This document shows positions 1,249 through 43,677 of a DNA stretch of 52,088 bases, in pieces. The stretch spans positions 1 to 52,088 of the forward strand of contig CAMOBD010000002.1 of the NCBI GenBank assembly GCA_946578345.1. The letters run 5' to 3'. The notes below the pieces were generated by a model. It did not search any database, was not told the DNA's origin, and saw only the letters and a program-made list of their open reading frames with translations. The DNA comes from an uncultured Clostridium sp. (GTDB taxonomy: Bacteria; Bacillota; Clostridia; TANB77; CAG-508). Position 1 is the first letter of the stretch. Each line of letters opens with the position of its first letter. A program made the translations under genes and the position numbers.

Positions 1249-1719
1249 CTATTGTTCATTAGTATTATTAACTTTTCTTTTATAATTACCTGATATTATT
1301 TTAGGTAAATAAGTTATTATTTTATAAATAGCAATACGGATTTTCTTACTCCATATATAAGTTTTTCTTAATTTATGAGGCATAACTTCAGTATTTTCTT
1401 CTTTAACAACTAAAGCAAGTTCTGCCTTTTCAATAGGAAATACATAGTTTTGTCCATCATTATTATCCCATTCATTATTTGAATTTCTAAAACATAAATT
1501 TAAGCTGTCATTAGATAGAAGCTCTATTTCGGCTTGGAAACCTAGATCTGATTTTTCCATTTTAATTTCATTTAAATTGTCCCAGTTGTTTCCAAATCCA
1601 TAATGAATGAATACTTCTTCTGAGTTATCTTGAAAAAATTTTCCTGTATAAGAAATTTTTACTGTACTATTTTCAATTAATTTATCTGTGTTAAAAAAAA
1701 TGTTTTTTACTAGTTCCAT
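1249..1719 (-). CDS. Small protein with a starch/carbohydrate-binding-module-like fold (CBM25-like) and a basic C-terminal tail
   Basis: 156 aa. The pattern HYGFGNNW ... EWDNNDGQNYVF resembles the WDNNxGxNY signature of CBM25/26-type modules. The call is motif-level only. Confidence 0.45.
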   Translation of the reverse strand: MELVKNIFFNTDKLIENSTVKISYTGKFFQDNSEEVFIHYGFGNNWDNLNEIKMEKSDLGFQAEIELLSNDSLNLCFRNSNNEWDNNDGQNYVFPIEKAELALVVKEENTEVMPHKLRKTYIWSKKIRIAIYKIITYLPKIISGNYKRKVNNTNEQ

Positions 1720-1832
1720 TTTTATCTCCTTTTTATCTCTTGTAACAATCTATCATAATATAACAAATTATATTATTAAAATACAAAATAAGCAATAGTT
1801 TTTTGAAAAAAATTTGAAAAATTTTGTTTATA

Positions 1833-2420
1833 TTAAAAAATGAGCCCAGTATTAGTTCCAAGTATTTTTCCTATAAAACTATATTTATCTTTATCTGTTA
1901 AAACAATATCTTCGAAATCTTTATTATCTGCTCTTAAGCTAAGTCCGTCTTTTCTAATAACATATCTTCTAATCATTATTTTTCCATTGTAATCTACTAA
2001 AGCGATGTCTTTATTTTCTAACGGAGTATTAAATTCTATAAAAACGTAACAACCTTCTGGGATTTTTGGCTCCATAGATTTATCATTAACTTTTAATGCT
2101 AAACATGCAGAAGGAAAATCAGCTGGTATTTCCATAAATGAGTCTACAGAACTTACTGCAGGTACTTGATTGTATGAAATATGTTCATACATTTTGTTTT
2201 GCATCTGCTCATCTGAAAAAACTTTATCGTAAGTGTACATCAAAGGTTGATAAGGAATTTCCATAGCTCTACAAATTGTTTTTAATGCTCTATGACTAGG
2301 ATTACGCTCTTCATTTTCTAAATGAGAAATATGACCCACATTAATATTTGTAAGCCTTGCTAGGTCTGATTTTGTAATTTTCTTCTCCTCACGAATTCTT
2401 GAAATCATATCTCCTACCAT
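1833..2420 (-). CDS. XRE-family HTH repressor fused to an S24 (LexA/CI-like) autopeptidase domain
   Basis: 195 aa. N-terminal HTH (KSDLARLTNINVGHISHLENEERNPS). C-terminal S24-like segment with SMEP and a downstream Lys. Confidence 0.75.
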   Translation of the reverse strand: MVGDMISRIREEKKITKSDLARLTNINVGHISHLENEERNPSHRALKTICRAMEIPYQPLMYTYDKVFSDEQMQNKMYEHISYNQVPAVSSVDSFMEIPADFPSACLALKVNDKSMEPKIPEGCYVFIEFNTPLENKDIALVDYNGKIMIRRYVIRKDGLSLRADNKDFEDIVLTDKDKYSFIGKILGTNTGLIF

Positions 2421-2632
2421 CTATATCGACCTCTTTCATTAAATTTTTAATTTAAGCATAATGTAATTATACATAAAAAGAAAAAAAATGTCTAGTATAA
2501 AAAATTTTTTTGTAAAAATATAGCGAAAAATGTGTTGTAAAAAATAATTTGTTATGGTAATATAAATTTATAAAATTGTATAGAATAAAGTAAAAATAAT
2601 TAGAGCTGGAAATGCTCAGATAAGAGGTTTTT

Positions 2633-4441
2633 ATGGAAGAAAATAAAAAAGAAGCAGACAATGAATTAGAAGAAAATTCAGCCAAGAATAATGAAGAAGT
2701 AGTAGCGGCAGACAAAAAAGAAGTCAAAAAAGAAAATTTAGAAAAAGACCAAGATAAAAAAGAAATAGAAAAGGAAGAAAGCAAAAAAGAAAAAAAAGTT
2801 AGCAAAAAAACAAAAATATTATTAATAGTAATATTTATAATCTTCTTATTAATTTTTTCTGTTATTTTCGCAATTATTAACATTGGCAATGAAAAAGTAT
2901 TTGGAAAAATATCTATTATGGGAATAGATGTCGGTAATATGACAAGAGAAGAAGCCAAGGAAACTCTGAATAAAATAATAGATGAAAAGATGACTGAAGA
3001 ACTGATTTTAAAGAAAGACGACTACGAGACTAGTTTAAATGCAATTCAATTGGATGCAAATTTTAATATTGATGAGGCTATAAATGAAGCGTATAACATA
3101 GGAAGAAGTGGAAACATTATTACAAATAACTATAACATTTTATATACGATGATTTTTGGAAGAAATATCGATTGTGATTTTAGTTATAGTGAAGATTTAC
3201 TAAATGAAAAAGTAAATAATATTGCTTCTAAAATACCTGGAGCAGTAGTTCAAAGCAGTTATTATATAGAAGACGAAAACTTAATAATTGTAAAAGGAAC
3301 AGAAGGATTAGCAATAGAAGAAGATGAACTAAAAAATGCTATAATTAATGAAATAAAAGATATAAAGCAAAAATATAATATAATAACAATTCCAACAGAA
3401 GAAGTTAAACCAGATGAAATAGACATAGAAAAAATAAAAAATGAAATATATAAAGAGCCACAAGATGCATATGTATCAGAAAATTCTGAAACAGGTAAGA
3501 CAGAAGTCCATACGCATGTAAATGGAGTGGATTTTGCCATTTCTATAGATGAAGCAAAAGAAATTTTAGCCGAAGATAAGCAAGAATATACTATTCCACT
3601 AAAAATAACAGTACCAGACAAAACTATAGCTGATTTAGGAGAAGAGGCATTCCCTGATGAATTAGCTACGTATTCTACCAGATATGATCCTACAAATAAA
3701 AATAGAAGTAATAATATAGCTATTTCAACAGAAAAAATAGATGGAACAATTATAATGCCAGGAGAAACATTCTCATACAATCAAACAGTTGGTGAAAGGA
3801 CAATTGCAGAAGGATACAAAGAAGCAGGAGCTTATGCAGGAGGAAGAGTTGTTCAAGATGTTGGAGGAGGAATTTGTCAAACATCTTCAACACTATATAA
3901 TGCAGCACTTCTTGCAAACTTAGAAATAGTAGATAGAAGCAATCATCAATTTCTAACATCATATGTAGATGCTGGAAGAGATGCAACAGTTGCATGGGGA
4001 TCTATAGATTTTCAATTTAAAAATACAAGAACGTACCCTATAAAAATAGAGGCAACAGCAAAAAATGGAGTATGCACAATGAGTATATATGGCATAAAAG
4101 AAGAAACAGAATATGAAGTAGTTATACAGTCAGAAGTACTTTCATATATACCATTTACTACTAAATATGAAGATGATGAGACTTTGGATGAAGGGGAAGA
4201 AGTTGTTGAACAATCAGGATATAGAGGTTGCACAAGTGAGGCATATAGAATACTTAAACAAAATGGAGAAGTAGTCTCTAAAACGCTATTATCTAAAGAT
4301 ACTTATGACCCTATGACAAGAATTATAAAAAGAGGAACAAAAAAGGAGGCAGTAACAACTAAAACTAATGAAAAAGTTGACAATGAAGAAACAAACCAAG
4401 TAGATAATACATTAGCACAAGAAGTGAATAATGTAGAATAA
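2633..4441 (+). CDS. VanW-family protein (membrane anchored, Lys/Glu-rich N-terminus)
   Basis: 602 aa, one TM helix. The VanW core ETFSYNQTVGERT...GGGICQTSSTLYNAAL is readable. Confidence 0.8.
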   Translation: MEENKKEADNELEENSAKNNEEVVAADKKEVKKENLEKDQDKKEIEKEESKKEKKVSKKTKILLIVIFIIFLLIFSVIFAIINIGNEKVFGKISIMGIDVGNMTREEAKETLNKIIDEKMTEELILKKDDYETSLNAIQLDANFNIDEAINEAYNIGRSGNIITNNYNILYTMIFGRNIDCDFSYSEDLLNEKVNNIASKIPGAVVQSSYYIEDENLIIVKGTEGLAIEEDELKNAIINEIKDIKQKYNIITIPTEEVKPDEIDIEKIKNEIYKEPQDAYVSENSETGKTEVHTHVNGVDFAISIDEAKEILAEDKQEYTIPLKITVPDKTIADLGEEAFPDELATYSTRYDPTNKNRSNNIAISTEKIDGTIIMPGETFSYNQTVGERTIAEGYKEAGAYAGGRVVQDVGGGICQTSSTLYNAALLANLEIVDRSNHQFLTSYVDAGRDATVAWGSIDFQFKNTRTYPIKIEATAKNGVCTMSIYGIKEETEYEVVIQSEVLSYIPFTTKYEDDETLDEGEEVVEQSGYRGCTSEAYRILKQNGEVVSKTLLSKDTYDPMTRIIKRGTKKEAVTTKTNEKVDNEETNQVDNTLAQEVNNVE

Positions 4442-4480
4442 AATACAAAAAATAGAAAATAATAATTAAGGGGGATACGT

Positions 4481-5122
4481 ATGATAAAAAAATCTATAGT
4501 AACAATATTTTTAATAATAGCAATATTATTTGCTTTTATAATACCATGTTTAGCATATGAGGATGAACTTTTTGAATTTGATCTACCAAGTAATTATGCA
4601 AATATGTCATATCAAAGTGTTTATATATTTGGTGATACATCAGGGAATTCGAATAGAGGATTTATAATTTATGTATATGAAAATGATGAGATGAAAAAGT
4701 CAGTTTGGGATATAAGTGATGACGACCTGGACTATTTGATAAGAAAATTAGGATATTCTGTAACAGTTATTAATACAGACAAAAAGGCAAAATTAGGAAA
4801 AGAAAAGGCGGTTAAGATAACAGCAACAGATTCAGGTGAATATGCAGATATGTACATTTTAGCATCAAATAAATACATTTATTTAGTTATGTTTTTTGGA
4901 GATTCTACATCAGATTTAAACTGTGCTGACTATGAAATGATAAAGGATTCATTTAAACTAAAAGATGCAACGACTAATTATAAAGCAATTTTTACAGTTG
5001 GATTTATAATAATTATTGTAGTAATAATGCTATTTAGCTCAAGAAGAAGACCACCGTATAATCCAAATCATAATATAGATTATAAAAATATGACAGAAGA
5101 AGATTTTAATATAAAGCAATAG
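4481..5122 (+). CDS. Hypothetical exported/membrane protein (N-terminal signal peptide, C-terminal TM anchor)
   Basis: 213 aa. RBS GGGGGA lies upstream. Both termini are hydrophobic. I recognise no family. Confidence 0.5.
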   Translation: MIKKSIVTIFLIIAILFAFIIPCLAYEDELFEFDLPSNYANMSYQSVYIFGDTSGNSNRGFIIYVYENDEMKKSVWDISDDDLDYLIRKLGYSVTVINTDKKAKLGKEKAVKITATDSGEYADMYILASNKYIYLVMFFGDSTSDLNCADYEMIKDSFKLKDATTNYKAIFTVGFIIIIVVIMLFSSRRRPPYNPNHNIDYKNMTEEDFNIKQ

Positions 5123-31909: not shown

Positions 31910-32074
31910 TATTTGAAAATAATAAATTATATTATTGCTCAAACTTATATTTAGTGATATAATTTGCTCAAAATATATAAAAAGTAGTTTATAAAAAAAT
32001 AGAAATATTAATATAAAGAAGATAAGGTAGAAGAAGTGAAGGAGTAGAAAAAATTCTCTCCTTCTCTTATGTAT

Positions 32075-32151
<77 letters not shown>

Positions 32152-32218
32152 AAAATCAAGTCTATACATAATTATACTTTTATTTTATAAAAAATTCAAT
32201 AGAAAATTCAAAAAAAAC

Positions 32219-32247
32219 TTGCAAATTCGAAAAAAATGTGCTATTAT
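32219..32247 (+). promoter_or_regulatory. Sigma-A-type promoter for tRNA-Pro
   Basis: TTGCAA, 17-nt spacer ending in TGC (extended -10), TATTAT. About 20 nt upstream of the tRNA. Confidence 0.55.
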
Positions 32248-32266
32248 ATTATAGTGTTAAATAAAT

Positions 32267-32342
32267 CGAGGCGTAGCGCAGTTGGTAGCGCGCGTGGTTT
32301 GGGACCATGAGGTCGCAGGTTCGATCCCTGTCGCCTCGACCA
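32267..32342 (+). tRNA. tRNA-Pro (anticodon UGG); integration target of the downstream island
   Basis: CGAGGCGTAGCGCAGTTGGTAGCGCGCGTGGTTTGGGACCATGAGGTCGCAGGTTCGATCCCTGTCGCCTCGACCA. Confidence 0.9.
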
Positions 32343-32343
32343 G
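32330..32343 (+). repeat. attL core (3' end of tRNA-Pro)
   Basis: GTCGCCTCGACCAG, repeated at 42413-42426. Confidence 0.75.
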
Positions 32344-32580
32344 TTTAAAGGATTTTTTAAGAAATTCTAGAAAATTTCAAAAAAGTCTAAGATGAGAAAA
32401 AGCAGATGTCTGTAGCAGTGCAGCACCTGCTTTTAATTTTATCAAATTCTATAAAATACTTAAAAATGCTGAGAAAATTTCAAAAATAAATTTCAAGAAT
32501 TATTTTTTGTCTTAAAAAAATTTCCAAAAAATTTCAAGAATAGCTATCCCTTATCCATACTGGATTAGGAGGAATTTACA

Positions 32581-33171
32581 TTGCTAACTTTTGTACCACA
32601 TAAAATAAGTGAAGACTACAAAATAGTTGAATTTTATCGTGTTAATAAAGATCTTTGTGAAAATAAATTATACAAAGATTTAAAGCCTACATCAATTTTA
32701 TTATATGCACTTTTATGTGACAGATTATCTATGTCTTATGCAAATGAAAATAAAAGCAATATTTCAAAAAACAAATTTCATTATTATGATGAAGATGAAA
32801 ATGTATTTGTAATATTTACGAGAATCGATTTAGAGAAGAAATTGCATATTGGTAAGCAATCTTTATGCTCTGCATTTAAAGAGCTTGTCAAAGCCAATTT
32901 AATTAAAGAAATAAGGCAAGGTAAAAATAAACCAAATAAAATTTATGTAGGGAAAACTATATCAGAAATAAATAACAAATTTGTAAATTGGAAGGTTGAA
33001 AATCAGACTACAGGAGTTCCGATTTCAAGCTGTCCGGAAGTATTAAAAACAGACACTAATAAAAATAATATATTTATTAAAAAGAATAATTATTTAAATT
33101 ATCAAGGAAGAGATTATTCTGATATGGATTGGAACAAATTATATGCGAATTATAATTTTGAAAATGATTAA
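32581..33171 (+). CDS. Replication initiator protein A N-terminal domain (RepA_N) family protein
   Basis: 196 aa. The typical RepA_N pattern is present: ...YKDLKPTSILLYALLCDRLSMS...VFVIFTRIDLEKKLHIGKQSLCSAFKELVKANLIKEIRQGKNKPNKIYV. TTG start after AGGAGG. Confidence 0.7.
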   Translation: MLTFVPHKISEDYKIVEFYRVNKDLCENKLYKDLKPTSILLYALLCDRLSMSYANENKSNISKNKFHYYDEDENVFVIFTRIDLEKKLHIGKQSLCSAFKELVKANLIKEIRQGKNKPNKIYVGKTISEINNKFVNWKVENQTTGVPISSCPEVLKTDTNKNNIFIKKNNYLNYQGRDYSDMDWNKLYANYNFEND

Positions 33172-33189
33172 TTTTATAGGAGGTTTTAT

Positions 33190-33561
33190 ATGGAAAATTC
33201 AAGACGCAAATTGGAATATCATATAGAAAATGATTATCTAATACCTAATATAGCTATGAAAAATAATAATTTGGGTAATTATCAAATTGGAAAATATGGA
33301 TATTTAAGGCTTGAGTATCTAAAAAAGTATAAAAGAGGTTATTATACAGAGTTAATGTTAGAAGGAACATTACCAGAACACATTGTAGCCATTGATAAAG
33401 AAACAAATATGCAAGTAAACAATATAGTTAAAAACTTAGCTAAAGCTAATAATGTTGATGAAATATTGAAACAAAACAACCAATTTGAATGGATAAGATT
33501 AATGAATAATTTTAAAAATAGTGCTGAGGAAATTGTTTTAAAAGAATTAATTTATAATTAA
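33190..33561 (+). CDS. tnpV: TnpV-like protein (Tn4451-family accessory protein)
   Basis: 123 aa. The pattern ...IGKYGYLRLEYLKKYKRGYYTELMLEGTLPEHIVAIDKE...WIRLMNNFKNSAEEIVLKELIY matches my recollection of TnpV. Confidence 0.65.
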   Translation: MENSRRKLEYHIENDYLIPNIAMKNNNLGNYQIGKYGYLRLEYLKKYKRGYYTELMLEGTLPEHIVAIDKETNMQVNNIVKNLAKANNVDEILKQNNQFEWIRLMNNFKNSAEEIVLKELIYN

Positions 33562-33580
33562 ATTTAGGAGGAATATTAAA

Positions 33581-33871
33581 ATGTGCAATTTTAGAGAAGT
33601 AAATGATGATATATTAAGAGAATGGCTAAATATTCGAGAACAAGAGGTATTTTGTACTTTAACACCTGAAGATAAAAAGCACCATCTATATTTTGATGAG
33701 CTATCTGAAAATATTTTAAAGAATGTACCTAAACAAAATCAAAAGTATGTTAAGAAGCAATTAGATAAACTTAATAATAATTTTATGGATTATCTTTGTT
33801 ACTGGAATGAAAAGTATTATAGGAATGGTTTTGTTGATGGAATGCAACTGATTGGTGGATGTATAAAATAA
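33581..33871 (+). CDS. Hypothetical small protein of the mobile element
   Basis: 96 aa. RBS GGAGG. No family recognised. Confidence 0.5.
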   Translation: MCNFREVNDDILREWLNIREQEVFCTLTPEDKKHHLYFDELSENILKNVPKQNQKYVKKQLDKLNNNFMDYLCYWNEKYYRNGFVDGMQLIGGCIK

Positions 33872-33915
33872 CAAAAAATAAATCCCAGAAGGAATGAAAC
33901 TTCTGGGACTTATTT

Positions 33916-34284
33916 TTATACATATATGAATGACTGTGGTGCAGACTTTATTCCATAGCTAGATAATTCTTGAGGAATACTATATTTTTTTATGTTGGTT
34001 AATTTATATGCTATAGCTTTACTTCTATCCTTAAAATACTGTTGATAAAACTTCAAATCTATTCCTGAATAATTTTTAGTTTCTTCCCATATATTATCTG
34101 GGGAATCTTCTAATATTTTTTCTACTTTAGCTTCACCTACAATTTTCATTATAGGATATGTTGAATATATTATTATTTTGTCAACCTCTTGTTTACATCT
34201 AATTTTTCTATATTCATATTTTTTAGTTCCATTAAAAATATTTTCTACATGTTGTGGATTAATTGAAATTAACATATTACACAT
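33916..34284 (-). CDS. ASCH (PUA-like fold) domain protein
   Basis: 122 aa. ISINPQHVENIFNGTKKYEYRK...IIIYSTYPIMKIVGEAKV is the ASCH N-terminal beta-barrel pattern. It lies 3 nt downstream of the HTH gene. Confidence 0.65.
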   Translation of the reverse strand: MCNMLISINPQHVENIFNGTKKYEYRKIRCKQEVDKIIIYSTYPIMKIVGEAKVEKILEDSPDNIWEETKNYSGIDLKFYQQYFKDRSKAIAYKLTNIKKYSIPQELSSYGIKSAPQSFIYV

Positions 34285-34287
34285 AAT

Positions 34288-34653
34288 TTACTCACTCTCA
34301 CTTTCCAATTCTTTTATCTTACTTTTCCAATACGAATTGTCTAATTTTTTATCTTTTGCTATCCTAATAAAATTTCGTAAAAACTCGTTCTTCATTATAT
34401 ATTCTGCTATATCTCCAGAGACTTTATATTTATTTGGACTTTCTTTTGCCACAAGATCATAAAATCTATCCTTTTCATCATCTTTTAAGTTAAATGCTTT
34501 TATAAATTTATCTAGCTTTTCTTTAGATGGAAACCTGTTTCCGTTTTCTATGTCTGATAAATAAGCAGCAGATATTCCTATTTCATCACCTAATTTTTTC
34601 AAGCTCTTAGCACCTCTATATTCCTTTACTAATTCTCCAAATTTCTTATTCAT
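34288..34653 (-). CDS. XRE-family HTH protein with C-terminal extension
   Basis: 121 aa. FGELVKEYRGAKSLKKLGDEIGISAAYLSDIENGNRFPS. Confidence 0.75.
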   Translation of the reverse strand: MNKKFGELVKEYRGAKSLKKLGDEIGISAAYLSDIENGNRFPSKEKLDKFIKAFNLKDDEKDRFYDLVAKESPNKYKVSGDIAEYIMKNEFLRNFIRIAKDKKLDNSYWKSKIKELESESE

Positions 34654-34768
34654 CTTTTCTCCTTAATTTGACAAACATGCTTATTAGCATATTTGTTAAT
34701 ATTATATATAATAAATGCTTTATTGTAAATACTTTTACGCAAAAAAGATACACTTTGTTGTGTATCCT

Positions 34769-36253
34769 TTACAGTATTTCAATCATATTTTGAGCTTTTC
34801 CTTCTATTATTATTTTTTCTAAATTTTCTTTTTTTATACTTGTCGGTGCTTGAATATAGCCGTTAACAATATTATTATTTAATAAAAACGCATATGTAAT
34901 TGGTTTTTGAAATGTTATAAAATGTTTAAACATTATAACTAAACTGTCTAGAGTCGTCACCTCTTTTAATTCTTCTTCATCGTAAGCTGTTCTTTTTCTT
35001 ACTATATTAAAAATTTCTTCTTGAGATTCAAATTTATTCCATGTTGTTTCTACAATGCCCAATGTGGTTATGGCTTTTTTATCGTGAGAAGCATAAAACA
35101 ATAATATATCTCCAGGATTAATCATCTTTATTTTTGAATTTGAAATGAATGCCTTTTTTATAGCATTTGCAGAAGTATTTTTCCCTTGTGTATCATCAAT
35201 ACTTATCTGGTATTCTTTTTCTGCATCTTCAAATAATAGTTTATGATATTTAGGTATTACTGGGCAAATGAAAATTCCTTGTTCTTTTAGTTGCACATAT
35301 GGATATTGAGTTTTATCTTTAAGATTTTTTACATAAATTGCTTCCTTTTCAACTGTTCCATCACTTTTAGTAGTTTTTTTGTGCGTGAATAATTTAAATC
35401 CATATTGTTCTAGTAAATAAATTAGTGCTTCTTGCCTTTCAAAAGTTGTAACATATATTTCATCAACATTTTTTCTAATAGCCTCATTCACCATTATTTT
35501 TATAAAACACTCTCCAATTTTCTTCCCAGTATCTGATACTTTGAAAGTTGAAACTTTAATTCTTCTTCCTGGTTTAAATGGGGTATCAAATGAAGAATAA
35601 TTTTCATGTTCTTCTTCTTCTTTTAACATTAAAAATGATGTAATTTTATTTTCCTTTGTAGTAGTAACATATGCTTTTTCGCCTTTTAATTGTTTACTTT
35701 TAAACCATTTGTCGAACCCTAAATAATCTCTGCGCAAAGTAGTGAAAAAATCATCTTCTAAATCCATATTATATAGATATTCTGTTTTAATAAACACAGG
35801 CGTATGTATAATAACCTGTTCTTCTTTTTTGAACTTTTCTAAGGCTTTATCGATAGACAATACTCTATTATCTAACCCTAAAATTGCTGCTTTTCTTAAA
35901 AGTTTTTTGTCATTTGTAATAAAATAGCTAACACAATTTTTTCTTACAGCATACAGCATTTCGTTGTCTATTTTATCATTCTCATTTTTACATCCAGCTA
36001 AATTATTAAATTCTTCTGGCATTTTAGGTGGATTATCTATTATATTATAGACTTTTAATTTAGATATAAATATAGATTTTCGTTCTTCTTCTTTAATTTT
36101 GTTAGCCTCTTCTAACGTTTTAGGGTGTATTGCAATCATATATCTATCAGAGTCATATAATATTTTAGTTAATTTGGATATTTTTTCATCTAGAACATGA
36201 TCATCTAAAATATAAATCATCATATTGGTATCTAATAATATTTTTTCTTTCAT
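34769..36253 (-). CDS. Three-domain protein: N-terminal PIN-like nuclease, central GNAT-like acetyltransferase, C-terminal PUA-like (ASCH/EVE-type) domain
   Basis: 494 aa. PIN signatures ILLDTNMMIY and YFITNDKKLL. GNAT-like segment SDTGKKIGECFIKIMVNEAIRKNVDEIYVTTFERQEALIYLLEQYGFKLF. PUA-like segment MINPGDILLFYASHDKKAITTLGIVE. The start overlaps the upstream ASCH gene stop by 4 nt (ATGA). Domain calls are motif-level only. Confidence 0.55.
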   Translation of the reverse strand: MKEKILLDTNMMIYILDDHVLDEKISKLTKILYDSDRYMIAIHPKTLEEANKIKEEERKSIFISKLKVYNIIDNPPKMPEEFNNLAGCKNENDKIDNEMLYAVRKNCVSYFITNDKKLLRKAAILGLDNRVLSIDKALEKFKKEEQVIIHTPVFIKTEYLYNMDLEDDFFTTLRRDYLGFDKWFKSKQLKGEKAYVTTTKENKITSFLMLKEEEEHENYSSFDTPFKPGRRIKVSTFKVSDTGKKIGECFIKIMVNEAIRKNVDEIYVTTFERQEALIYLLEQYGFKLFTHKKTTKSDGTVEKEAIYVKNLKDKTQYPYVQLKEQGIFICPVIPKYHKLLFEDAEKEYQISIDDTQGKNTSANAIKKAFISNSKIKMINPGDILLFYASHDKKAITTLGIVETTWNKFESQEEIFNIVRKRTAYDEEELKEVTTLDSLVIMFKHFITFQKPITYAFLLNNNIVNGYIQAPTSIKKENLEKIIIEGKAQNMIEIL

Positions 36254-36603
36254 AAATTCTCCTTTTTCAATTTTATTTCTATTCCTACAACTCCATATTT
36301 TTCTTCTTTTTCTTTAGTATAAAATTTGTATAAATCTTTTAAAAATTTCTCTTCGGTTTCATTTTTATCAGAATATTGAGAAATATCTAAAGTATTTATC
36401 AACTCTTTAAAACTTTTCTTTATTTTTAACCCAATTATTTCAGTATATATTTCATCTGTTAGTTCAGGTTCTTTTTGAAAAATTATTTCATCTCCTATTT
36501 GAATGCATCTTCTTTTTTCGTCATTTAGCCTAACTTCTACTCTTTTAGTTCCATTCTTCATATATTCAAAATATTTTGGATTTAATTTCATTATATATTT
36601 CAT
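36250..36603 (-). CDS. ASCH domain protein
   Basis: 117 aa. MKLNPKYFEYMKNGTKRVEVRLNDEKRRCIQIGDEIIF is the classic ASCH opening. It is translationally coupled to the 494-aa gene. Confidence 0.7.
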   Translation of the reverse strand: MKYIMKLNPKYFEYMKNGTKRVEVRLNDEKRRCIQIGDEIIFQKEPELTDEIYTEIIGLKIKKSFKELINTLDISQYSDKNETEEKFLKDLYKFYTKEKEEKYGVVGIEIKLKKENL

Positions 36604-36745
36604 ATTACATTTTTCCTTTCTATATTTCTTATATTAAGATATTTTTATTTCAAAAAATATCGGAATTTGTAGTTTTATCAAAAAAGCAAAATAACCCTGT
36701 AATCATAAATCACATTATTATTTTGCTTTTCTTAAGTATGTCGTA

Positions 36746-37609
36746 TTATTTAAATATTTCTTTCATAATCCCATTTTTCATATCTGCAATATTATAAATA
36801 TTATTCATACTATCAAATGTTTCCTTTAAGTTATTTCTAGCAGAAATCCAGCCCATTCCATCAGTAAACCAAACAAAAGCAAATCCCATAACTTTTTCTG
36901 ATTCTTCTGCTATCATTTTGTAACTCCTAGCTGTTTCATTTAATTTTGATCCACCTGAAGCATAAAAGTTTGTTTCTATACCATATATACAATTATCAGT
37001 CTTAACCACAAAATCAAATCTTTTAGTTGCTTGATTTTTATTGCTAATAAATGACATATCTAATTTCCATTTTTCTTCTATGTCTTGTAAATACATTTCT
37101 TTAAAATATGTTTCATTTTTCTTAAATCCGGCTTTTTGAATAAATCTTTCCACTATGTCTTCCATTAAATGTCCACCACGATTTTTTCTGGCATTTGAAT
37201 TTAGACCAGATTCAACTCCTAAAACATAATCATATAAATTATTTACTATATGATTTTGAATCAAATCAAATAATCCTGTTTCTCTCATAAATATTTTATA
37301 TTGTTCTACACTATAATTCATTTTTTTAAAATTATAATCAAACTTGTTTCCATCATGGTCTAAGACTAATATTTCATATTGTCTAACAGCTAATAATGTA
37401 GGTATGCATTTTATTATTTCAGGATATTTAATCATTAATTCTTCAAAGTCTTTTTCAATATTTTGGCTTCCTATTAATGAATTCATTATATTTAATTCTA
37501 TTTTATATTTTTCAGCTTTTTTATAAATTGTTTCAAAATCTATGTAATACTTATAATCTGCTATACTATCTGTGAAAGTTAGTAACCATTCTGCAAAATC
37601 TCTTTTCAT
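36746..37609 (-). CDS. dpnB: Type II restriction endonuclease, DpnII family (GATC)
   Basis: 287 aa. The N-terminus ...FAEWLLTFTDSIADYKYYIDFETIYKK...LNIMNSLIGSQNIEKDF resembles pneumococcal DpnII as I recall it. It is the third gene after two Dam-type methylases, as in the dpnM-dpnA-dpnB cassette. Confidence 0.7.
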   Translation of the reverse strand: MKRDFAEWLLTFTDSIADYKYYIDFETIYKKAEKYKIELNIMNSLIGSQNIEKDFEELMIKYPEIIKCIPTLLAVRQYEILVLDHDGNKFDYNFKKMNYSVEQYKIFMRETGLFDLIQNHIVNNLYDYVLGVESGLNSNARKNRGGHLMEDIVERFIQKAGFKKNETYFKEMYLQDIEEKWKLDMSFISNKNQATKRFDFVVKTDNCIYGIETNFYASGGSKLNETARSYKMIAEESEKVMGFAFVWFTDGMGWISARNNLKETFDSMNNIYNIADMKNGIMKEIFK

Positions 37610-37611
37610 AG

Positions 37612-38394
37612 TTATTTTTCCTCCAATTCCTCATATCTTCTTATTGATAAATCTAGATATTCTTTTTTATTATCTATTCCTATGTACTCTCTATTTAATT
37701 TTACTGCTGAAATACCTGTTGTACTACTTCCACAAAATGGATCTAAAATTAAATCATTTTCTTTCGTTGAAGCTAAAATAATTTTATCTAATATATCTAA
37801 AGGTTTTTGTGTCGGATGTTTTCCTTGTTTTTTTTCAGATGGTTTTGTAAGAGAAGTTGTCCAAACATCTTTCATCTGTTTATTCCCATTCATTTGTTTC
37901 ATTACCTCATAATTAAATGTATATTTTACATTTTTTAAATCTTTCCTTGCCCATAAAATTGTTTCTGTTGAGTGCGTAAATGTTTTGCAAGCTAGATTAG
38001 GTGGAGGGTTGGTCTTTTGCCAAGTTATATTATTTAAAATTTTGAATCCTTCTTCTTCAAGTGCCATTCCAATTGAATAGATATTATGTAATGTTCCACT
38101 AATCCATATCGTTCCAGTATCTTTTAATATTCTATAGCACTCTCTAATCCATTTTTTATTAAATTTATGTTTATCTTCTTGTGTTAAAGTTCTATCCCAA
38201 TCTCCTTTATTAACACTAACCATTTTACCACCACTACAAGTTATACCATCATTTGACAAAAAGTATGGTGGATCTGCAAATATCATATCAAATGTTTTAT
38301 TTGTAAATTTCTTTAGTTCTTTAAATGTATCTCCATTTATTAAGCTAAAGCTTCCTGTTTCATTTGTATAATAAAGTTTGTTTGAGAATTCCAT
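37612..38394 (-). CDS. dpnA: N6-adenine DNA methyltransferase, DpnA-like (beta class)
   Basis: 260 aa. An N-terminal FADPPY motif followed by a C-terminal DPFCGSSTTG AdoMet motif. Confidence 0.8.
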   Translation of the reverse strand: MEFSNKLYYTNETGSFSLINGDTFKELKKFTNKTFDMIFADPPYFLSNDGITCSGGKMVSVNKGDWDRTLTQEDKHKFNKKWIRECYRILKDTGTIWISGTLHNIYSIGMALEEEGFKILNNITWQKTNPPPNLACKTFTHSTETILWARKDLKNVKYTFNYEVMKQMNGNKQMKDVWTTSLTKPSEKKQGKHPTQKPLDILDKIILASTKENDLILDPFCGSSTTGISAVKLNREYIGIDNKKEYLDLSIRRYEELEEK

Positions 38395-39296
38395 TCTAAT
38401 TGCTCCTTATAGTTTGTTATTAATAATTCTGAAATTTCTCCACGTCCTTTTGCATTTGAATTTATCATCCTTTTAGCTGAGACTTCATTTATGTTAAATC
38501 CTTTATAAATATTTTCAAAAAAGTCATCATTTTCATCAATATTCTTAGGATTAGAATTGCTTAACATTAGCTTTGCATTTTTAACATTTAGTTTATTGTA
38601 ATACTTCGCCAATTCTTTTTGGTTTTTATCATTAAAATCTTCTTTTGTATAAGATGTAAATCCAGATGTTACCGAAAGTGGTCTATATGGAGGATCAAAA
38701 TAAACAAATGTGTTCTCATCTATTAAACTTTCGCTTTCTTTATAATCTCCATACTTAAATATTGTATTTTTAAATAATATTGATAAATTGCTTAAATTTC
38801 TGGAATCACATATAGTTGGATTCTTATATTTACCAAAAGGAACATTGAATTTTCCTGACTTATTAACTCTATATAGTCCATTAAAACATGTCCTATTCAA
38901 AAATATAAATTCAGAAGCACGTTCCACATCTAATTCAGTATTTAAAAAGTAAGAATTATATTTTGTTCTTATATTATAAAAACATTTTTGTCTCCCATCT
39001 ATCTCTAATGACAAAAATTCTTTTTCTTTTTTGTCTAGCTTTTGAATTAAATCTTCAACTTTATATTTAATTACATTGTAGCAATTTATTAAATCTTTAT
39101 TTATATCAAAAGCATAAGCTTGTTTTACATCATATTTTTGTAAAATGTCTATTAAAACAGCTCCGCCTCCAACAAAAGGCTCTATATATTTTTCTATTTT
39201 TCCATTTTTTAATTCAAATGGAAAATATTTAGTTATTTGTGGAATTAAGCTAGTTTTTCCTCCAGCCCATTTTACAAATGGCTTTACAATTTCCAT
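38340..39296 (-). CDS. dpnM: Dam-family (D12 class) N6-adenine DNA methyltransferase, DpnM-like
   Basis: 318 aa. VKWAGGK, EPFVGGGAV, FDPPY. Its tail overlaps dpnA by 55 nt and contains the dpnA RBS. Confidence 0.85.
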   Translation of the reverse strand: MEIVKPFVKWAGGKTSLIPQITKYFPFELKNGKIEKYIEPFVGGGAVLIDILQKYDVKQAYAFDINKDLINCYNVIKYKVEDLIQKLDKKEKEFLSLEIDGRQKCFYNIRTKYNSYFLNTELDVERASEFIFLNRTCFNGLYRVNKSGKFNVPFGKYKNPTICDSRNLSNLSILFKNTIFKYGDYKESESLIDENTFVYFDPPYRPLSVTSGFTSYTKEDFNDKNQKELAKYYNKLNVKNAKLMLSNSNPKNIDENDDFFENIYKGFNINEVSAKRMINSNAKGRGEISELLITNYKEQLEWNSQTNFIIQMKQEALA

Positions 39297-39429
39297 CTTT
39301 ACCTCCAGAAATTCTTTTAAAACATATCATATTTTTGTATACTTAAAAAAATATATGACCTATGTTTTTAATTCTTTATTTGACATTATTCAAAAGTTTA
39401 TTAATGAGTTGAATTATCTATACTATTGC

Positions 39430-39846
39430 TTAAAAATATTTAACTAAATAATATTTGTTAAGTTTAGGATTTTCTTTGCTTTTTCTAATAAATTCAACTT
39501 TAAATCCACATTTCTTGTAAAATTCAAGTGCTTGAAATCCATAAGTAGTTAAATTTATATTTTCATATCCTTTATTTTTATAGTAGTTCTCAACTGTTTC
39601 CATTAATTTGCTTCCAATATGTTTATTTCGATATTGTTCTAATACAATTAAATCACTTATATGAACTTCTTTATAATATGAATTTCCTGTTATTATTCCA
39701 ATAATTTTAGATTTTTCTTTAGCAACAAAAGCAAATGATTTATAATTGCAAACAATTCCATTTTTTGTGGCAAATTTATTAAATTCTTCGTCTATTATTT
39801 CATAAATTTCTTCATCTAAATTTTCTTTATATTCTACTTCTATCAT
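39430..39846 (-). CDS. GNAT-family N-acetyltransferase
   Basis: 138 aa. LIVLEQYRNKHIGSKLM ... GYENINLTTYGFQALEFYKKCGF. Confidence 0.7.
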   Translation of the reverse strand: MIEVEYKENLDEEIYEIIDEEFNKFATKNGIVCNYKSFAFVAKEKSKIIGIITGNSYYKEVHISDLIVLEQYRNKHIGSKLMETVENYYKNKGYENINLTTYGFQALEFYKKCGFKVEFIRKSKENPKLNKYYLVKYF

Positions 39847-40553
39847 ACTTTACTCCAAATTATAAAATCATCAAAATTATTTTAACATTTTTTTTAAAAT
39901 TTATAAATAGCTTTTTATAAATTATACAACAAAAATTTTTCTACTCAGGGTTTGGGATTTTATCTCATTAAATAGAATTCGTGTGAACGGATTCATTGCT
40001 TGCTAGGACAAGGAATTCATTTTTGTATAAAATTTAGCTTCTGAATAAAATGTAAGATAATTTACTTTAAAATGATTTCTCGTACTAAATAGTTTTCATT
40101 TAATTCTTAATTAAGAAAATATTTTGTTTCTATACATATTCCTTATAAATTATTTTATTAGATTATAAAAGTACAAATGTATTCCATATCAAATGTCCCT
40201 AAAATCAGTTTTTATTTAAAATATATTCTTTTTATATTTTTAGAGCTATTAAATACAGAAGCATGTATAAAAAAGTTCAAAAAAGTTTTAAAAATTTTTA
40301 AATACTTGTCCCGATTTGTAAGATTAAAAGTGCTGTTAATTTATAGAAAAGTAAAAAAATTTTTAAAAATTATCGTAACCTTTTGGATATTTAAGTGCTG
40401 TTATACATAGAAGGAAATTTCAAAATAGTCCTTGACAAAATTAAAAATGTTATGTTAAATATTGACTCATAAGGGTGCATAAATCACACAATATTTAACT
40501 TAAACATTTGCGAAAAGTACTTACAAAAGGAACAAGTTAAAGGAGGTGTGATT

Positions 40554-40763
40554 ATGGAAAAACTTGATAATATAGTTATGTATTCACCAGAAGATGTTAG
40601 AAAACTTCTTCATTTAGGTAATGCAAAATGTTTAGAGTTGTTTAATTCAAAAGATTTTCCTAGCATAAGAATTGGTAGAGCCTTTTGGGTAAAAGCTGAT
40701 TGTTTAGAAAAATTTTTAAGTGAAAAACATACTCTGAATAACCAGAACGAAGAAATGTTTTAA
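40554..40763 (+). CDS. Small HTH DNA-binding protein, excisionase-like
   Basis: 69 aa. It sits immediately upstream of the integrase and follows AAAGGAGG. The assignment rests on position and size. Confidence 0.5.
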   Translation: MEKLDNIVMYSPEDVRKLLHLGNAKCLELFNSKDFPSIRIGRAFWVKADCLEKFLSEKHTLNNQNEEMF

Positions 40764-40891
40764 TTAAACAAAGAATTTTAATAACTAACTATTTACAAGA
40801 ACGCCCTTACATAACACGATAAAATAAAGTCTTATTAAGTACAATGAGTTATTGCAAGGGAGTTTCTTCTAAAGTAAGGAGGATACATACA

Positions 40892-42223
40892 ATGCAACAC
40901 TCAAAAGGAATTACAGTTGGAACTTATACCGTCAAAACAAAGAAGAAAGTTAATTCTTTACCTATCTGTCCAACTTGTAAAAAATGCAAAGATAGGTCTG
41001 TTTGTAGCAATAGGAAAAAACTTACCAAATGTTCTATATGTAAAAATTGTAGTGATAAAGACAACTGTGATATTTACTATATTTCATCTTGTTGTAAAGC
41101 AATTTTAAATTTAGGAAGAAGCCCACAAACTGGAAAGGAAATCAAGAAAACATTTACTGGCCAAACTGAAGATGAGGCTTTATATAAACTTTATCAATTT
41201 AAAGATGATATAAAAAGAAATGGGCTTCCACAAAATATTATTCAAAAAACAACTGTTACAATTTATAATATAGGAATGCAAATGGAATATATAAAAAAAT
41301 CTAAAGGTAAGATTGGAACAAATGCATATAGAACAAATATGAGTACTTTAAAAAGATTAAAACCATATAAGTTTTCTAATATTCCTATTGAAAAAGTTAA
41401 AAAAGAGCAAATTGAAGAATTTTTAGAAGATGAAAGAAATAAGTCAAATTCTATAATAAAAAAAGATTATGGAATGCTTGCGAGAATTTATGATTATGCC
41501 GAAGAAAATAATTATATTACTAAAAACTTTTTTAGGGGTTTTTATAAAATTGAAAAAACTCAAAGTAAGATTGCTACAAAACAAGTTAATCCAATGACAT
41601 TTGATGAAGAAAGAAGATTTAAAAAATACTTATCACAAGATATTCATCCTTTTAAGAATCTAGTCTTAATTGAATTGTACACTGGAATGAGATTAGGCGA
41701 AGTATTGGCTTTAAATATATCTGATGTTGATATAAACAGTAATATTATTCATGTTAGTAAAATATTAACACATGATGAAAATCATAAACCATACATCCAT
41801 GAATCTAGCTTATCTCAAACAAAAGACGGTGCTAGACTTGTACAGATTAATGATGTTTTTAAAAATAATGTTATTGAAGCAATTAAATTTGCACAAGGTA
41901 ATGAAAATAATAAAGAACAATTATTATTCTGCCAAGAAAATGGCTCACTTATTTTAGAAAGTAGTGTAAATAGTTATTTAAAAAGAGTGGCAAAAGAAAT
42001 AAACTTAAATTATTGGAAACAGTTTAGTTCTCATAGATTAAGGCATACTTTTGCTACAAGATGTATTGAAGCAGGTATTTCTCTTCCTGTCCTTCAAACA
42101 TTAATGGGACATCATGATATTCAAACAACCATTAATGAATATGGTAAAGTATTCAATTTTTACCAAAGAAAAGAGAAAGAAAAATATATAAAATATGTAA
42201 CAGATGGAATAAGTGAGATGTAA
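40892..42223 (+). CDS. int: Tyrosine-type site-specific integrase with a Cys-rich N-terminal extension
   Basis: About 443 aa. Catalytic region GMRLGEVLAL ... HRLRHTFATRCIEAG ... LMGHHDIQTTINEY. N-terminal CPTCKKCKDRSVCSNRKKLTKCSICKNCSDKDNC. ATG 40892 follows AAGGAGG. Confidence 0.85.
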   Translation: MQHSKGITVGTYTVKTKKKVNSLPICPTCKKCKDRSVCSNRKKLTKCSICKNCSDKDNCDIYYISSCCKAILNLGRSPQTGKEIKKTFTGQTEDEALYKLYQFKDDIKRNGLPQNIIQKTTVTIYNIGMQMEYIKKSKGKIGTNAYRTNMSTLKRLKPYKFSNIPIEKVKKEQIEEFLEDERNKSNSIIKKDYGMLARIYDYAEENNYITKNFFRGFYKIEKTQSKIATKQVNPMTFDEERRFKKYLSQDIHPFKNLVLIELYTGMRLGEVLALNISDVDINSNIIHVSKILTHDENHKPYIHESSLSQTKDGARLVQINDVFKNNVIEAIKFAQGNENNKEQLLFCQENGSLILESSVNSYLKRVAKEINLNYWKQFSSHRLRHTFATRCIEAGISLPVLQTLMGHHDIQTTINEYGKVFNFYQRKEKEKYIKYVTDGISEM

Positions 42224-42412
42224 GCTATAAGGAAGCAAATTGAAAATTTAATAGATAAAAAACAAAGTTGGAATTTATATACTTATCTTGTATAGAATTT
42301 AATCATATTCAAACATAAAAACAAGATAAAAAATTTCAAGGTCATATTTCAAAAATAGATTTTGATAAAACAAACTCAGTAATTGCAATAGATATATGCT
42401 TATATAGAGGTA

Positions 42413-42996: not shown

Positions 42997-43677
42997 TTAT
43001 AGTCTTTTATTTTTAAGTTGCCTTATAATTCCTAAAATATCTTTTACACTAAAAAAGTATTTTTCAGCTCTAGTAAGTGGAATGTTATGATTATGCTTAT
43101 ATACTATTTTATCTATAAAAGTTAGCATATCAGAGACTTGAAATAGTCTTTTTTCTTTATGGTCAAATTCAATTCTATGTTCAACATTATTTTTAGTAAT
43201 TAATAATGTATCAATAATTGCTCCTAATGATTCTTGTCCATTGTCATAATAAACAACTACTTTTTCAAACTGATTCATATAATTACTAATAGATTCAAAA
43301 AATTTATTTATCCCAATGGCTAATTCTCTGTTTAATTGAGTTTTACTATTCTTAAATCTTTTATCAATTATGATAGTATGTATTTTTACTTTAACTCTTT
43401 TTGAAAAATAAAATATAGCCCAAAAAATATTTTTTCTTTGTTCAAGCTTTAAATATGAATAATCGCCTCTTTTTGCAACTAAGTCAGCAAGATGTATCAT
43501 ACCATCATAATTGGCTTTTTTTAATCTATTATTTAAATATTCTAAATCATTAACTATTGAATCATCACTTTCATGTATTGTAAAAGAAACTCCATATAAA
43601 TCTGAACTTCCGTCTACAAATCCAAAGTCACCACTTTCGTCGATGAATATGTTTAGTCTTCGCTTTATATTAATCAC
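42997..43677 (-). CDS. DUF3800-family protein
   Basis: 226 aa. The N-terminal LNIFIDESGDFG signature is typical of DUF3800. A bidirectional terminator AGCCATTC-ACAC-GAATGGCT lies at 42972-42991. Confidence 0.6.
   Translation of the reverse strand: MINIKRRLNIFIDESGDFGFVDGSSDLYGVSFTIHESDDSIVNDLEYLNNRLKKANYDGMIHLADLVAKRGDYSYLKLEQRKNIFWAIFYFSKRVKVKIHTIIIDKRFKNSKTQLNRELAIGINKFFESISNYMNQFEKVVVYYDNGQESLGAIIDTLLITKNNVEHRIEFDHKEKRLFQVSDMLTFIDKIVYKHNHNIPLTRAEKYFFSVKDILGIIRQLKNKRL

Follow-up and report, generated by a model that had tools for sequence, protein, structure and literature searches.

The sequence analysed here is a 52,088-nt stretch of contig CAMOBD010000002.1 from an uncultured Clostridium sp. 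(hereafter the window, in whose coordinates all positions of its open reading frames, ORFs, are given), and our subject is a cassette of four genes on its minus strand, built around a 494-aa protein with PIN, GNAT and PUA-like domains. A short earlier note on this DNA (the original prediction) had described four co-oriented ORFs, and their coordinates, the overlap between the first two and the gaps between the others were all confirmed from the sequence. The stop codon of the first gene, ASCH117, and the start codon of the second, M11A, share an ATGA, with the ribosome-binding site AAGGAG placed before the overlap; M11A is separated by 115 bp from the helix-turn-helix (HTH) gene HTH121, which is followed after 3 nt by M11B. 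Rfam found no RNA genes within the cassette. In the order of transcription, the features are:

36250–36603, minus strand: ASCH117, a stand-alone ASCH protein of 117 aa, Pyrococcus PH0355/PF0455 type; translationally coupled to M11A; lineage-specific accessory
34769–36253, minus strand: M11A, a 494-aa PIN-GNAT-EVE protein; predicted effector or toxin
35819–36253, minus strand: PIN domain of M11A, approximately aa 1–145
35294–35791, minus strand: GNAT domain of M11A, approximately aa 155–320
34772–35281, minus strand: PUA-like EVE/ASCH domain of M11A, approximately aa 325–494
34741–34767, minus strand: hairpin and T-run read from the sequence, likely the intrinsic terminator of the ASCH117–M11A unit
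34701–34729, minus strand: sigma-70-type promoter for the HTH121–M11B unit, TTTACA-17-TATAAT, agreeing with the consensus at 11 of 12 positions
34671–34696, minus strand: 26-bp palindrome ACAAATATGCTAATAAGCATGTTTGT, located after the -10 box and ahead of the ribosome-binding site; predicted operator for the XRE HTH
34288–34653, minus strand: HTH121, a 121-aa XRE-family HTH protein between M11A and M11B; predicted autoregulator
33916–34284, minus strand: M11B (ASCH122), an ASCH protein of 122 aa belonging to the ZmASCH/GevA family; predicted to be an antitoxin or a subunit that binds nucleic acid
33874–33917, minus strand: strong intrinsic terminator with an 18-pair stem and a T-run, at the cassette end and overlapping the M11B stop codon by two bases; the block's homology with other loci gives out at ~33901–33916

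The two proteins that we regard as the core of the cassette match a catalogued system. M11A matched the PADLOC model PDC-M11A (PDLC04422) with an E value of 3.5e-138, its residues 4–489 aligning to model positions 2–496 of 501, and M11B, encoded on the same strand 484 bp downstream of M11A with the HTH gene intervening, matched PDC-M11B (PDLC04425) with an E value of 5.4e-43. The components of the (PIN)-GNAT-EVE + ASCH operon reported by Bell et al. 2020 (PMC7641849) were likewise all found, namely a PIN domain with its acidic residues, a GNAT domain, an EVE/PUA-like domain and a separate ASCH protein. We are close to certain that the window pair belongs to this (PIN)-GNAT-EVE + ASCH / PDC-M11 family, and the statement that the genes correspond to no named system has to be withdrawn, as both names fit. 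Elsewhere in the literature, we found the name PDC-M11 solely as PADLOC output in one preprint.

The pairing of M11A and M11B was examined in a survey of one genome per species, the ORFs being searched with the window proteins. The resulting 71 loci span Clostridia, Bacilli, methanogens, Thermococci, Dehalococcoidia, Kiritimatiellia, Treponema, Fibrobacter and others. A homologue of M11B was present in 67 of them, the window included, and it almost always lay directly downstream of M11A, with an overlap between the two genes or a gap of under 100 bp; the other four consist of three contig-end truncations (L041, L054 and L068) and one locus with reversed gene order (L062). In Bacteria and Archaea alike, essentially all loci that could be evaluated have M11B after M11A, and conservation on this scale places the observation far beyond chance. 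The family itself is large, with 1,673 representatives at 50% identity clustering when matches with E values up to 1e-3 are counted and 475 with E values up to 1e-30. In one gut Clostridia clade, the one to which the window belongs, M11A and M11B have become separated by the insertion of an XRE HTH gene, and a second ASCH gene, of unrelated type, has been added upstream.

This upstream gene, ASCH117, has a narrower distribution. Its product matched Pfam ASCH (2e-9) and DUF3850 (8e-6), resembled the Pyrococcus structural-genomics proteins PH0355, PF0455 and PF0469 (PDB 2z0t at 8e-14), and had no match among the PADLOC models. It was found in 13 of the 71 loci, all from the window's Clostridia clade and always immediately 5' of M11A; the most widespread homologue, P0142 (246 contigs), stood in the same four-gene cassette in the six places read. 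A particularly informative locus is L001 (7830–10336), which carries M11A, the HTH gene and M11B at 97.5% nucleotide identity to the window and has ASCH117 replaced: the homology breaks off 14 nt ahead of the M11A ATG, with a cytidine deaminase gene upstream. An intact M11A in the company of no ASCH117 argues strongly against ASCH117 being an essential antidote. The original prediction had coupled the 494-aa protein to ASCH117 because of the ATGA overlap. With ASCH117 in 13 and M11B in 67 of the 71 loci, and ASCH117 gone from L001, that pairing does not stand; the conserved partner of M11A is the downstream M11B. An eraser role like that of YqfB, suggested for the ASCH proteins, was left unsupported, as no YqfB among solved structures was retrieved by ASCH117, ASCH122 or the M11B profile at E values up to 10, a comparison that did not extend to the catalytic residues directly.

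A direct sequence search of M11A against PDB gave no match, and profiles and structure models were therefore needed to resolve its domains. On M11A alone, Pfam reported only EVE, at 4.8e-4 and below the gathering score; when 32 diverse relatives were scanned singly, EVE was found in 10, PIN_3 in 7 and Acetyltransf_1 in 6 (best 8.8e-9). The AlphaFold2 model of the full protein (predicted local distance difference test score, pLDDT, 84.9) consists of three domains, and a separate model of residues 1–148 reached a pLDDT of 84.7. In Foldseek, the PIN model matched Utp24/FCF1 best, together with TTHA0540, PAE2754 and VapC, with template-modelling (TM) scores up to 0.68; the structures 3ix7 and 1v8p were among the matches. 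Of its acidic residues, the family alignment shows no variation at D8 and D115 and conservation of at least 90% at D93 and D96, while E49 is invariant only among the closer relatives (alignment A1). The nuclease site of M11A looks intact because the window protein keeps all of D8, E49, D93, D96 and D115. For the middle domain, the search with the full model retrieved Naa50, Naa10, Naa60 and PaiA, and the family profile matched Naa50 at 5.6e-6; the C-terminal domain matched ZmASCH, an ASCH domain of solved structure, with a TM score of 0.82. Neither Pfam nor Foldseek gave HNH or PD-(D/E)XK matches in M11A. A single polypeptide thus holds a PIN domain, a GNAT fold and a PUA-like reader domain, and the architecture that had been read from the letters alone, along with the two ASCH proteins and the XRE HTH, was upheld by the Pfam, profile and AlphaFold2/Foldseek searches. 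The idea that the C-terminal domain of M11A and M11B are recent paralogues was unsupported at the sequence level, BLASTP finding no similarity between the two.

M11B gave a weak ASCH match in Pfam (0.025) and matched the solved ZmASCH structure at 7.5e-7 when searched alone, and a profile of 29 M11B and GevA sequences (GevA being a phage homologue described below) matched ZmASCH 5gus at 4.4e-28, covering the whole domain (model positions 4–130). By this profile comparison, M11B is identified as an ASCH protein of the ZmASCH type. The 29 sequences share the invariant residues K21, E24, R26, Y40, P44, W66, Y83, P116 and Y121, and Q117 and S118 are nearly invariant. ZmASCH (PDB 5GUQ/5GUS) binds single-stranded DNA and RNA and shows Mg2+-dependent cleavage of single-stranded RNA in vitro, where it prefers single-stranded RNA, and Tyr47, Lys53 and Ser128 contribute to its nucleic-acid activity (Kim et al. 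2017, PMC5615036). In our alignment, Tyr47 corresponds to the invariant Y40 and Ser128 to S118 of the PQS motif; Lys53 aligns with K47 of the window protein, a position not conserved across the family.

Other arrangements of the M11B-type domain were also seen. M11B matched the C-terminal domain (positions 191–309) of NCBIfam PRK12279, "50S ribosomal protein L22/unknown domain fusion protein", with an E value of 7e-13, and some organisms therefore have ribosomal protein L22 joined to an ASCH domain of the M11B type; the fusion hints that domains of this type may bind RNA or the ribosome. In the Verrucomicrobia/Kiritimatiellia loci L049 (9473–10471) and L051 (6096–7094), the M11B ASCH domain is fused to an AAA_17 ATPase (332 aa), and in L056 (6434–6973) an AAA_17 gene is a separate neighbour.

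The gene between the two core genes comes with regulatory signals of its own, and the cassette reads as two transcription units, ASCH117–M11A and HTH121–M11B, each closed by a predicted terminator. The first terminator (GATACAC-AACAAA-GTGTATC-TTTTTT) directly follows the M11A stop codon. A hairpin and T-run was present at the same site in all 14 related loci with the HTH gene, the stem bases differing and the pairing being kept, and two of these loci (L022 and L023) retain the hairpin with entirely different sequences. The TTTACA-17-TATAAT promoter is the best match in the region, and related loci preserve its -35 and -10 boxes. Downstream of it lies the 26-bp palindrome, followed by the ribosome-binding site and the start codon of the HTH gene. 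ACAAATATGCTAATAAGCATGTTTGT occurs only once in the window, where the chance expectation is 0 matches. The perfect palindrome ACAAATATGCTTATAAGCATATTTGT was found in L003, L004, L005, L007, L009, L011 and L017, a near-perfect one in L008 and L022 and a recognisable one in L023, L022 and L023 being overall only ~67–71% identical. HTH121 itself matched Pfam HTH_3 (8e-9) and HTH_31 (1.5e-8) and, in PADLOC, HTH_VI, capH and Control_protein; the gene was present in 14 of the 71 loci, all within the Clostridia clade. Judging from this arrangement, the HTH121–M11B unit is very probably autoregulated by the HTH protein at the predicted operator. The operator half-site does not recur upstream of ASCH117, and there is thus no evidence of the HTH protein controlling the first unit. 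In L001, the N-terminus of the HTH gene is out of frame, which could indicate a pseudogene or an assembly error in a metagenome-assembled genome. Finally, the ASCH domain of an HTH-ASCH fusion protein of Paracoccus is clearly homologous to M11B (1e-12), but its HTH is only marginally similar to HTH121 (E value 0.02). This rules out claiming HTH121 as a split product of such a fusion, and we treat the separate HTH as an analogous solution and not as a demonstrated split fusion.

Comparison of the related loci indicated where the mobile unit begins and ends. In 12 loci (L003–L005, L007–L011, L017, L022, L023 and L028), nucleotide homology to the window corresponds to the four-gene block: it starts at 33901–33947 in nine of them and at 33439–33587, the TnpV side included, in L005, L007 and L022, and ends at 36596–36733, within ~130 nt upstream of ASCH117. 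The four genes therefore travel as one unit from one genomic context to another. In L002, the entire island is held in common with the window (32072–42227). The cassette region is low in GC (0.22–0.25, compared with ~0.28–0.30 in the flanks), tRNA-Arg and tRNA-Pro genes stand on one side of the low-GC stretch, and RepA_N, TnpV, an Xis-like HTH_17 gene and a tyrosine integrase are found within the stretch as well. These features make a mobile-island context plausible, in keeping with the original prediction. No att (attachment) repeats for the island were established within the window. A 17-nt direct repeat, ATTTCAAAAATA[A/G]ATTT (32477–32493 and 42346–42362), flanks the segment that runs from RepA_N to a point just beyond the integrase and could represent att sites; it was no better than many chance repeats in AT-rich DNA and we did not retain it as an att candidate.

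Directly upstream of the cassette and on the same strand, domain matches confirmed dpnM (D12/Dam), dpnA (N6_N4 methyltransferase) and dpnB (DpnII, E value 3.8e-107), which form a restriction-modification (RM) system, and the original prediction had attached significance to this neighbour. The linkage is not conserved: a DpnII cassette is adjacent in one of the 71 loci (L002). The slot occupied by the DpnII system in the window (36746–39296) holds GmrSD_N (601 aa) and Fic in the related elements L075–L080 (~1671–4865), whereas the TnpV side is constant, a small ORF and TnpV following the cassette in the six P0142 places as they do in the window. DpnII in one element and GmrSD with Fic in others mean that the neighbouring slot holds exchangeable defence cargo, and the DpnII linkage is incidental. 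Over the wider set, the M11A–M11B pair lies inside type I RM operons in L033, L036, L059, L060, L066 and L069, the clearest case being L033 with the order HsdM, A, B, HsdS, HsdR. RM genes were found at most 8 kb away in at least 18 of the 71 loci, and integrase, TnpV or RadC genes at most 8 kb away in at least 19. Some neighbours in the window fall outside the cassette. The dpnM and dpnA ORFs, as listed, overlap by 55 nt (38340–38394), and the dpnA start may lie further downstream; a RimI-like stand-alone GNAT of 138 aa (39430–39846, minus strand) is upstream of dpnM on the same strand; and a DUF3800 protein of 226 aa (42997–43677, minus strand) is encoded just past the integrase.

Homologues were also found on 33 plasmids, with a ZmASCH-type gene adjoining the GNAT match, and in 16 phage records. 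Escherichia phage PhiR47_2 (PV340567.1; L072, 2980–4408) carries a pair lacking PIN, annotated "GevT toxin" and "GevA antitoxin", between cI and kil. GevA shares 37% identity with M11B along its full length (E value 2e-33), GevT is 28% identical to M11A residues 155–486 (7e-37), and the two match the same PDC-M11 models (2e-133 and 7e-52). In lambda, the cI–kil interval is occupied by the exclusion genes rexAB. The same GNAT-EVE gene is present in seven further records of lambdoid E. coli phages, annotated as hypothetical or with a FIG identifier only. In the Methanothermobacter prophage psiM100 (L074, 2498–4343; NC_002628.3, 8233–10078), ORFD (492 aa) and ORF5 (129 aa) match PDC-M11A and PDC-M11B; ORFD starts inside the "inserted fragment IFa" and runs just past its end, and ORF5, annotated as also present in phage psiM2, lies just beyond it.

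The locus is a lineage-specific four-gene version of the two-gene (PIN)-GNAT-EVE + ASCH module, and probably toxin–antitoxin-like or serving abortive defence. A defence or toxin–antitoxin-like module was the general idea of the original prediction and is the prediction of the literature too, and as a prediction it held up. On the working mechanism that we favour, the PUA-like domain would dock M11A on a modified nucleotide in RNA, most likely tRNA or rRNA, or in DNA, and the PIN domain, the GNAT domain or both would then damage the docked target. M11B, a nucleic-acid-binding PUA-like protein, would restrain M11A either by competing for the ligand or by binding M11A itself. In the Clostridia variant, M11B would be supplied independently of M11A, at a level kept constant through autorepression by the HTH at the palindrome, and ASCH117 would be a dispensable auxiliary reader or modulator. 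RNA appears the more likely target because of the type of the PIN domain, the preference of ZmASCH for single-stranded RNA and the fusion with L22. For a toxin–antitoxin or defence function as such, the balance tips only slightly in favour, and the specific target and mode of neutralisation are proposed with far less confidence.

Several points weigh against this reading. We know of no experiment on any PIN-containing member, and we infer the target nucleic acid, the trigger and the mode of neutralisation alike. Motif A of the GNAT domain is only partly canonical, TGKKIG being aligned to RGIGIG of Naa50 (canonical RGxGxG), so acetyltransferase activity of M11A is not assured. M11B, if it is an active RNase, could be a co-effector rather than an antitoxin, the RNase activity of ZmASCH being a single in vitro report (PMC5615036). 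Literature searches for a paper behind the names GevT and GevA gave nothing relevant, and the toxin and antitoxin assignment rests on the GenBank annotation. The PDC set, moreover, comprises 145 phage defence candidates that are called untested (Payne et al. 2024 preprint, 10.1101/2024.01.29.577857).

The evidence for RM association could be read differently, with the module as an accessory of DNA modification: GNAT-EVE would acetylate a DNA base, as a self mark or in an attack on the invader, ASCH would read the mark and PIN would restrict. Base acetylation was proposed by Iyer et al., according to Bell et al., and HTH-ASCH and HsdS-ASCH fusions suggest that ASCH binds modified DNA (PMC7641849); the six type I RM operons that enclose the pair and the RM or type IV (GmrSD) neighbours in the window's clade fit the same idea. 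We nevertheless consider it unlikely, given that PIN domains are mostly RNases and the nearest structural matches here are Utp24/FCF1 and VapC, that ZmASCH prefers single-stranded RNA in vitro (PMC5615036), that an M11B-type domain is fused to ribosomal protein L22 (PRK12279), and that most loci have the pair without any RM neighbour.

An equally unlikely reading makes the cassette an addiction or stabilisation module of an integrative element, a plain toxin–antitoxin system with no anti-phage role. It accounts for the travel of the cassette with TnpV, RepA_N, Xis-like and integrase genes, for the order of toxin then antitoxin and for the predicted autoregulation of the antitoxin-side promoter. 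The two-gene pair, however, also lies inside type I RM operons of archaeal loci that do not look mobile; the slot next to the cassette holds swappable defence cargo, DpnII or GmrSD; and the lambdoid phage pair sits between cI and kil, the position of rexAB in lambda. In favour of addiction, PDC systems show a weaker association with other systems of defence than do systems identified through enrichment (Payne et al., 10.1101/2024.01.29.577857).

By analogy with DarT/DarG, one may also imagine reversible acetylation of nucleic acids, in which a PUA-guided GNAT would acetylate a base, PIN would cut and ASCH would erase or shield the mark; the HTH-controlled M11B and ASCH117 would then add a second, tunable layer of control in the four-gene variant. 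Nothing here supports the eraser step and we regard the scheme as decidedly unlikely. Quite improbable is the arrangement in which ASCH117 is the functional partner of M11A, as reader, eraser or antidote, and HTH121 with ASCH122 forms a separate module. ASCH117 shares the ATGA overlap and a ribosome-binding site with M11A and is always adjacent to it where present (13 loci and six more places), but it is missing from 58 of the 71 loci where M11B is present in 67, L001 keeps an intact, 97% identical M11A without it, PADLOC defines the system by M11A and M11B, and the phage protein annotated as an antitoxin, GevA, is a homologue of ASCH122. A housekeeping role in RNA processing or modification (FCF1-like rRNA processing or a writer/eraser pair for N4-acetylcytidine) is very unlikely indeed, since two homologues named "rRNA-processing protein FCF1" by JGI and Utp24/FCF1 as the best match of the PIN model are set against a patchy distribution with horizontal transfer across phyla and domains, an occurrence on islands, plasmids and prophages, a close relative locus without one of the four genes and a pair that is not syntenic with core genes.

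The value of the four-gene cassette lies in an experimental handle on an open question and not in the discovery of an unknown system. The family is widespread in bacteria, archaea, plasmids and phages and joins a modified-base reader to two different effector chemistries. The window variant is compact and well delimited, and its clear terminator, promoter and predicted 26-bp operator would make genetic dissection easy. Natural comparisons are ready-made in L001, which has no ASCH117, and in the two-gene forms, which have no HTH.

Among named systems, the nearest is PDC-M11, whose models both core proteins match over their full length; PDC-M11 is a two-gene candidate, whereas the window adds one gene between A and B and one ahead of A. 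Of the operons for PIN-GNAT-EVE proteins in Bell et al. 2020, nearly all encode an additional PUA-like ASCH protein, at times in fusion with an XRE HTH and often with AAA_17, the PIN-containing forms are close to type I RM and other defence systems, and none of these modules had been characterised experimentally; the first description and the idea of DNA base acetylation are credited there to Iyer et al. 2013 (PMC7641849). The window shares with them the same three-domain fusion, the obligatory ASCH gene, the proximity to RM and defence genes and the association with an XRE HTH. It differs in that the HTH, instead of being fused to ASCH, is encoded by a separate gene that has a promoter and predicted operator to itself, in the extra PH0355-type ASCH upstream, and in a neighbouring RM system of type II (DpnII) rather than type I. 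The association with AAA_17 was seen in the relatives L049, L051 and L056, while the window cassette is without AAA_17.

The GevT/GevA pair has the effector gene first and the ASCH gene after it, and both components are homologous to M11A and M11B, but GevT lacks the PIN domain, the two genes overlap directly with no HTH between them, and the pair is phage-borne. ZmASCH resembles M11B as a member of its family, with the GxKxxExR motif, Tyr47 (Y40 here) and the PPQS motif with Ser128 (S118 here). It is the ASCH domain of a "helix-turn-helix domain-containing protein" of the alphaproteobacterium Zymomonas, of the HTH-ASCH fusion type noted by Bell et al., and its study (PMC5615036) concerned the protein without its genomic partner. 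TacT/AtaT and VapC are alike in their GNAT and PIN folds, in the predicted toxin logic and in the HTH-controlled promoter. They are, however, single-domain toxins with ribbon-helix-helix (RHH), DUF1778 or VapB-type antitoxins upstream, whereas the GNAT domain of M11A is internal to a 494-aa PIN-GNAT-reader fusion with an ASCH partner, no RHH/DUF1778 antitoxin gene is present, and the best structural matches of the GNAT domain are Naa50, Naa10 and PaiA, not TacT or AtaT; the cassette is accordingly not a type II system of the TacT/AtaT kind. Nor does M11A fall among the modification-dependent restriction enzymes that combine a PUA-like reader with an HNH or PD-(D/E)XK DNase, its nuclease domain being PIN. 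The core module has thus been described already, having been predicted in 2013 and 2020 and catalogued as PDC-M11; new here are its Clostridia-specific four-gene variant and the regulatory anatomy of that variant, which gives the partner gene a regulator and a promoter to itself.

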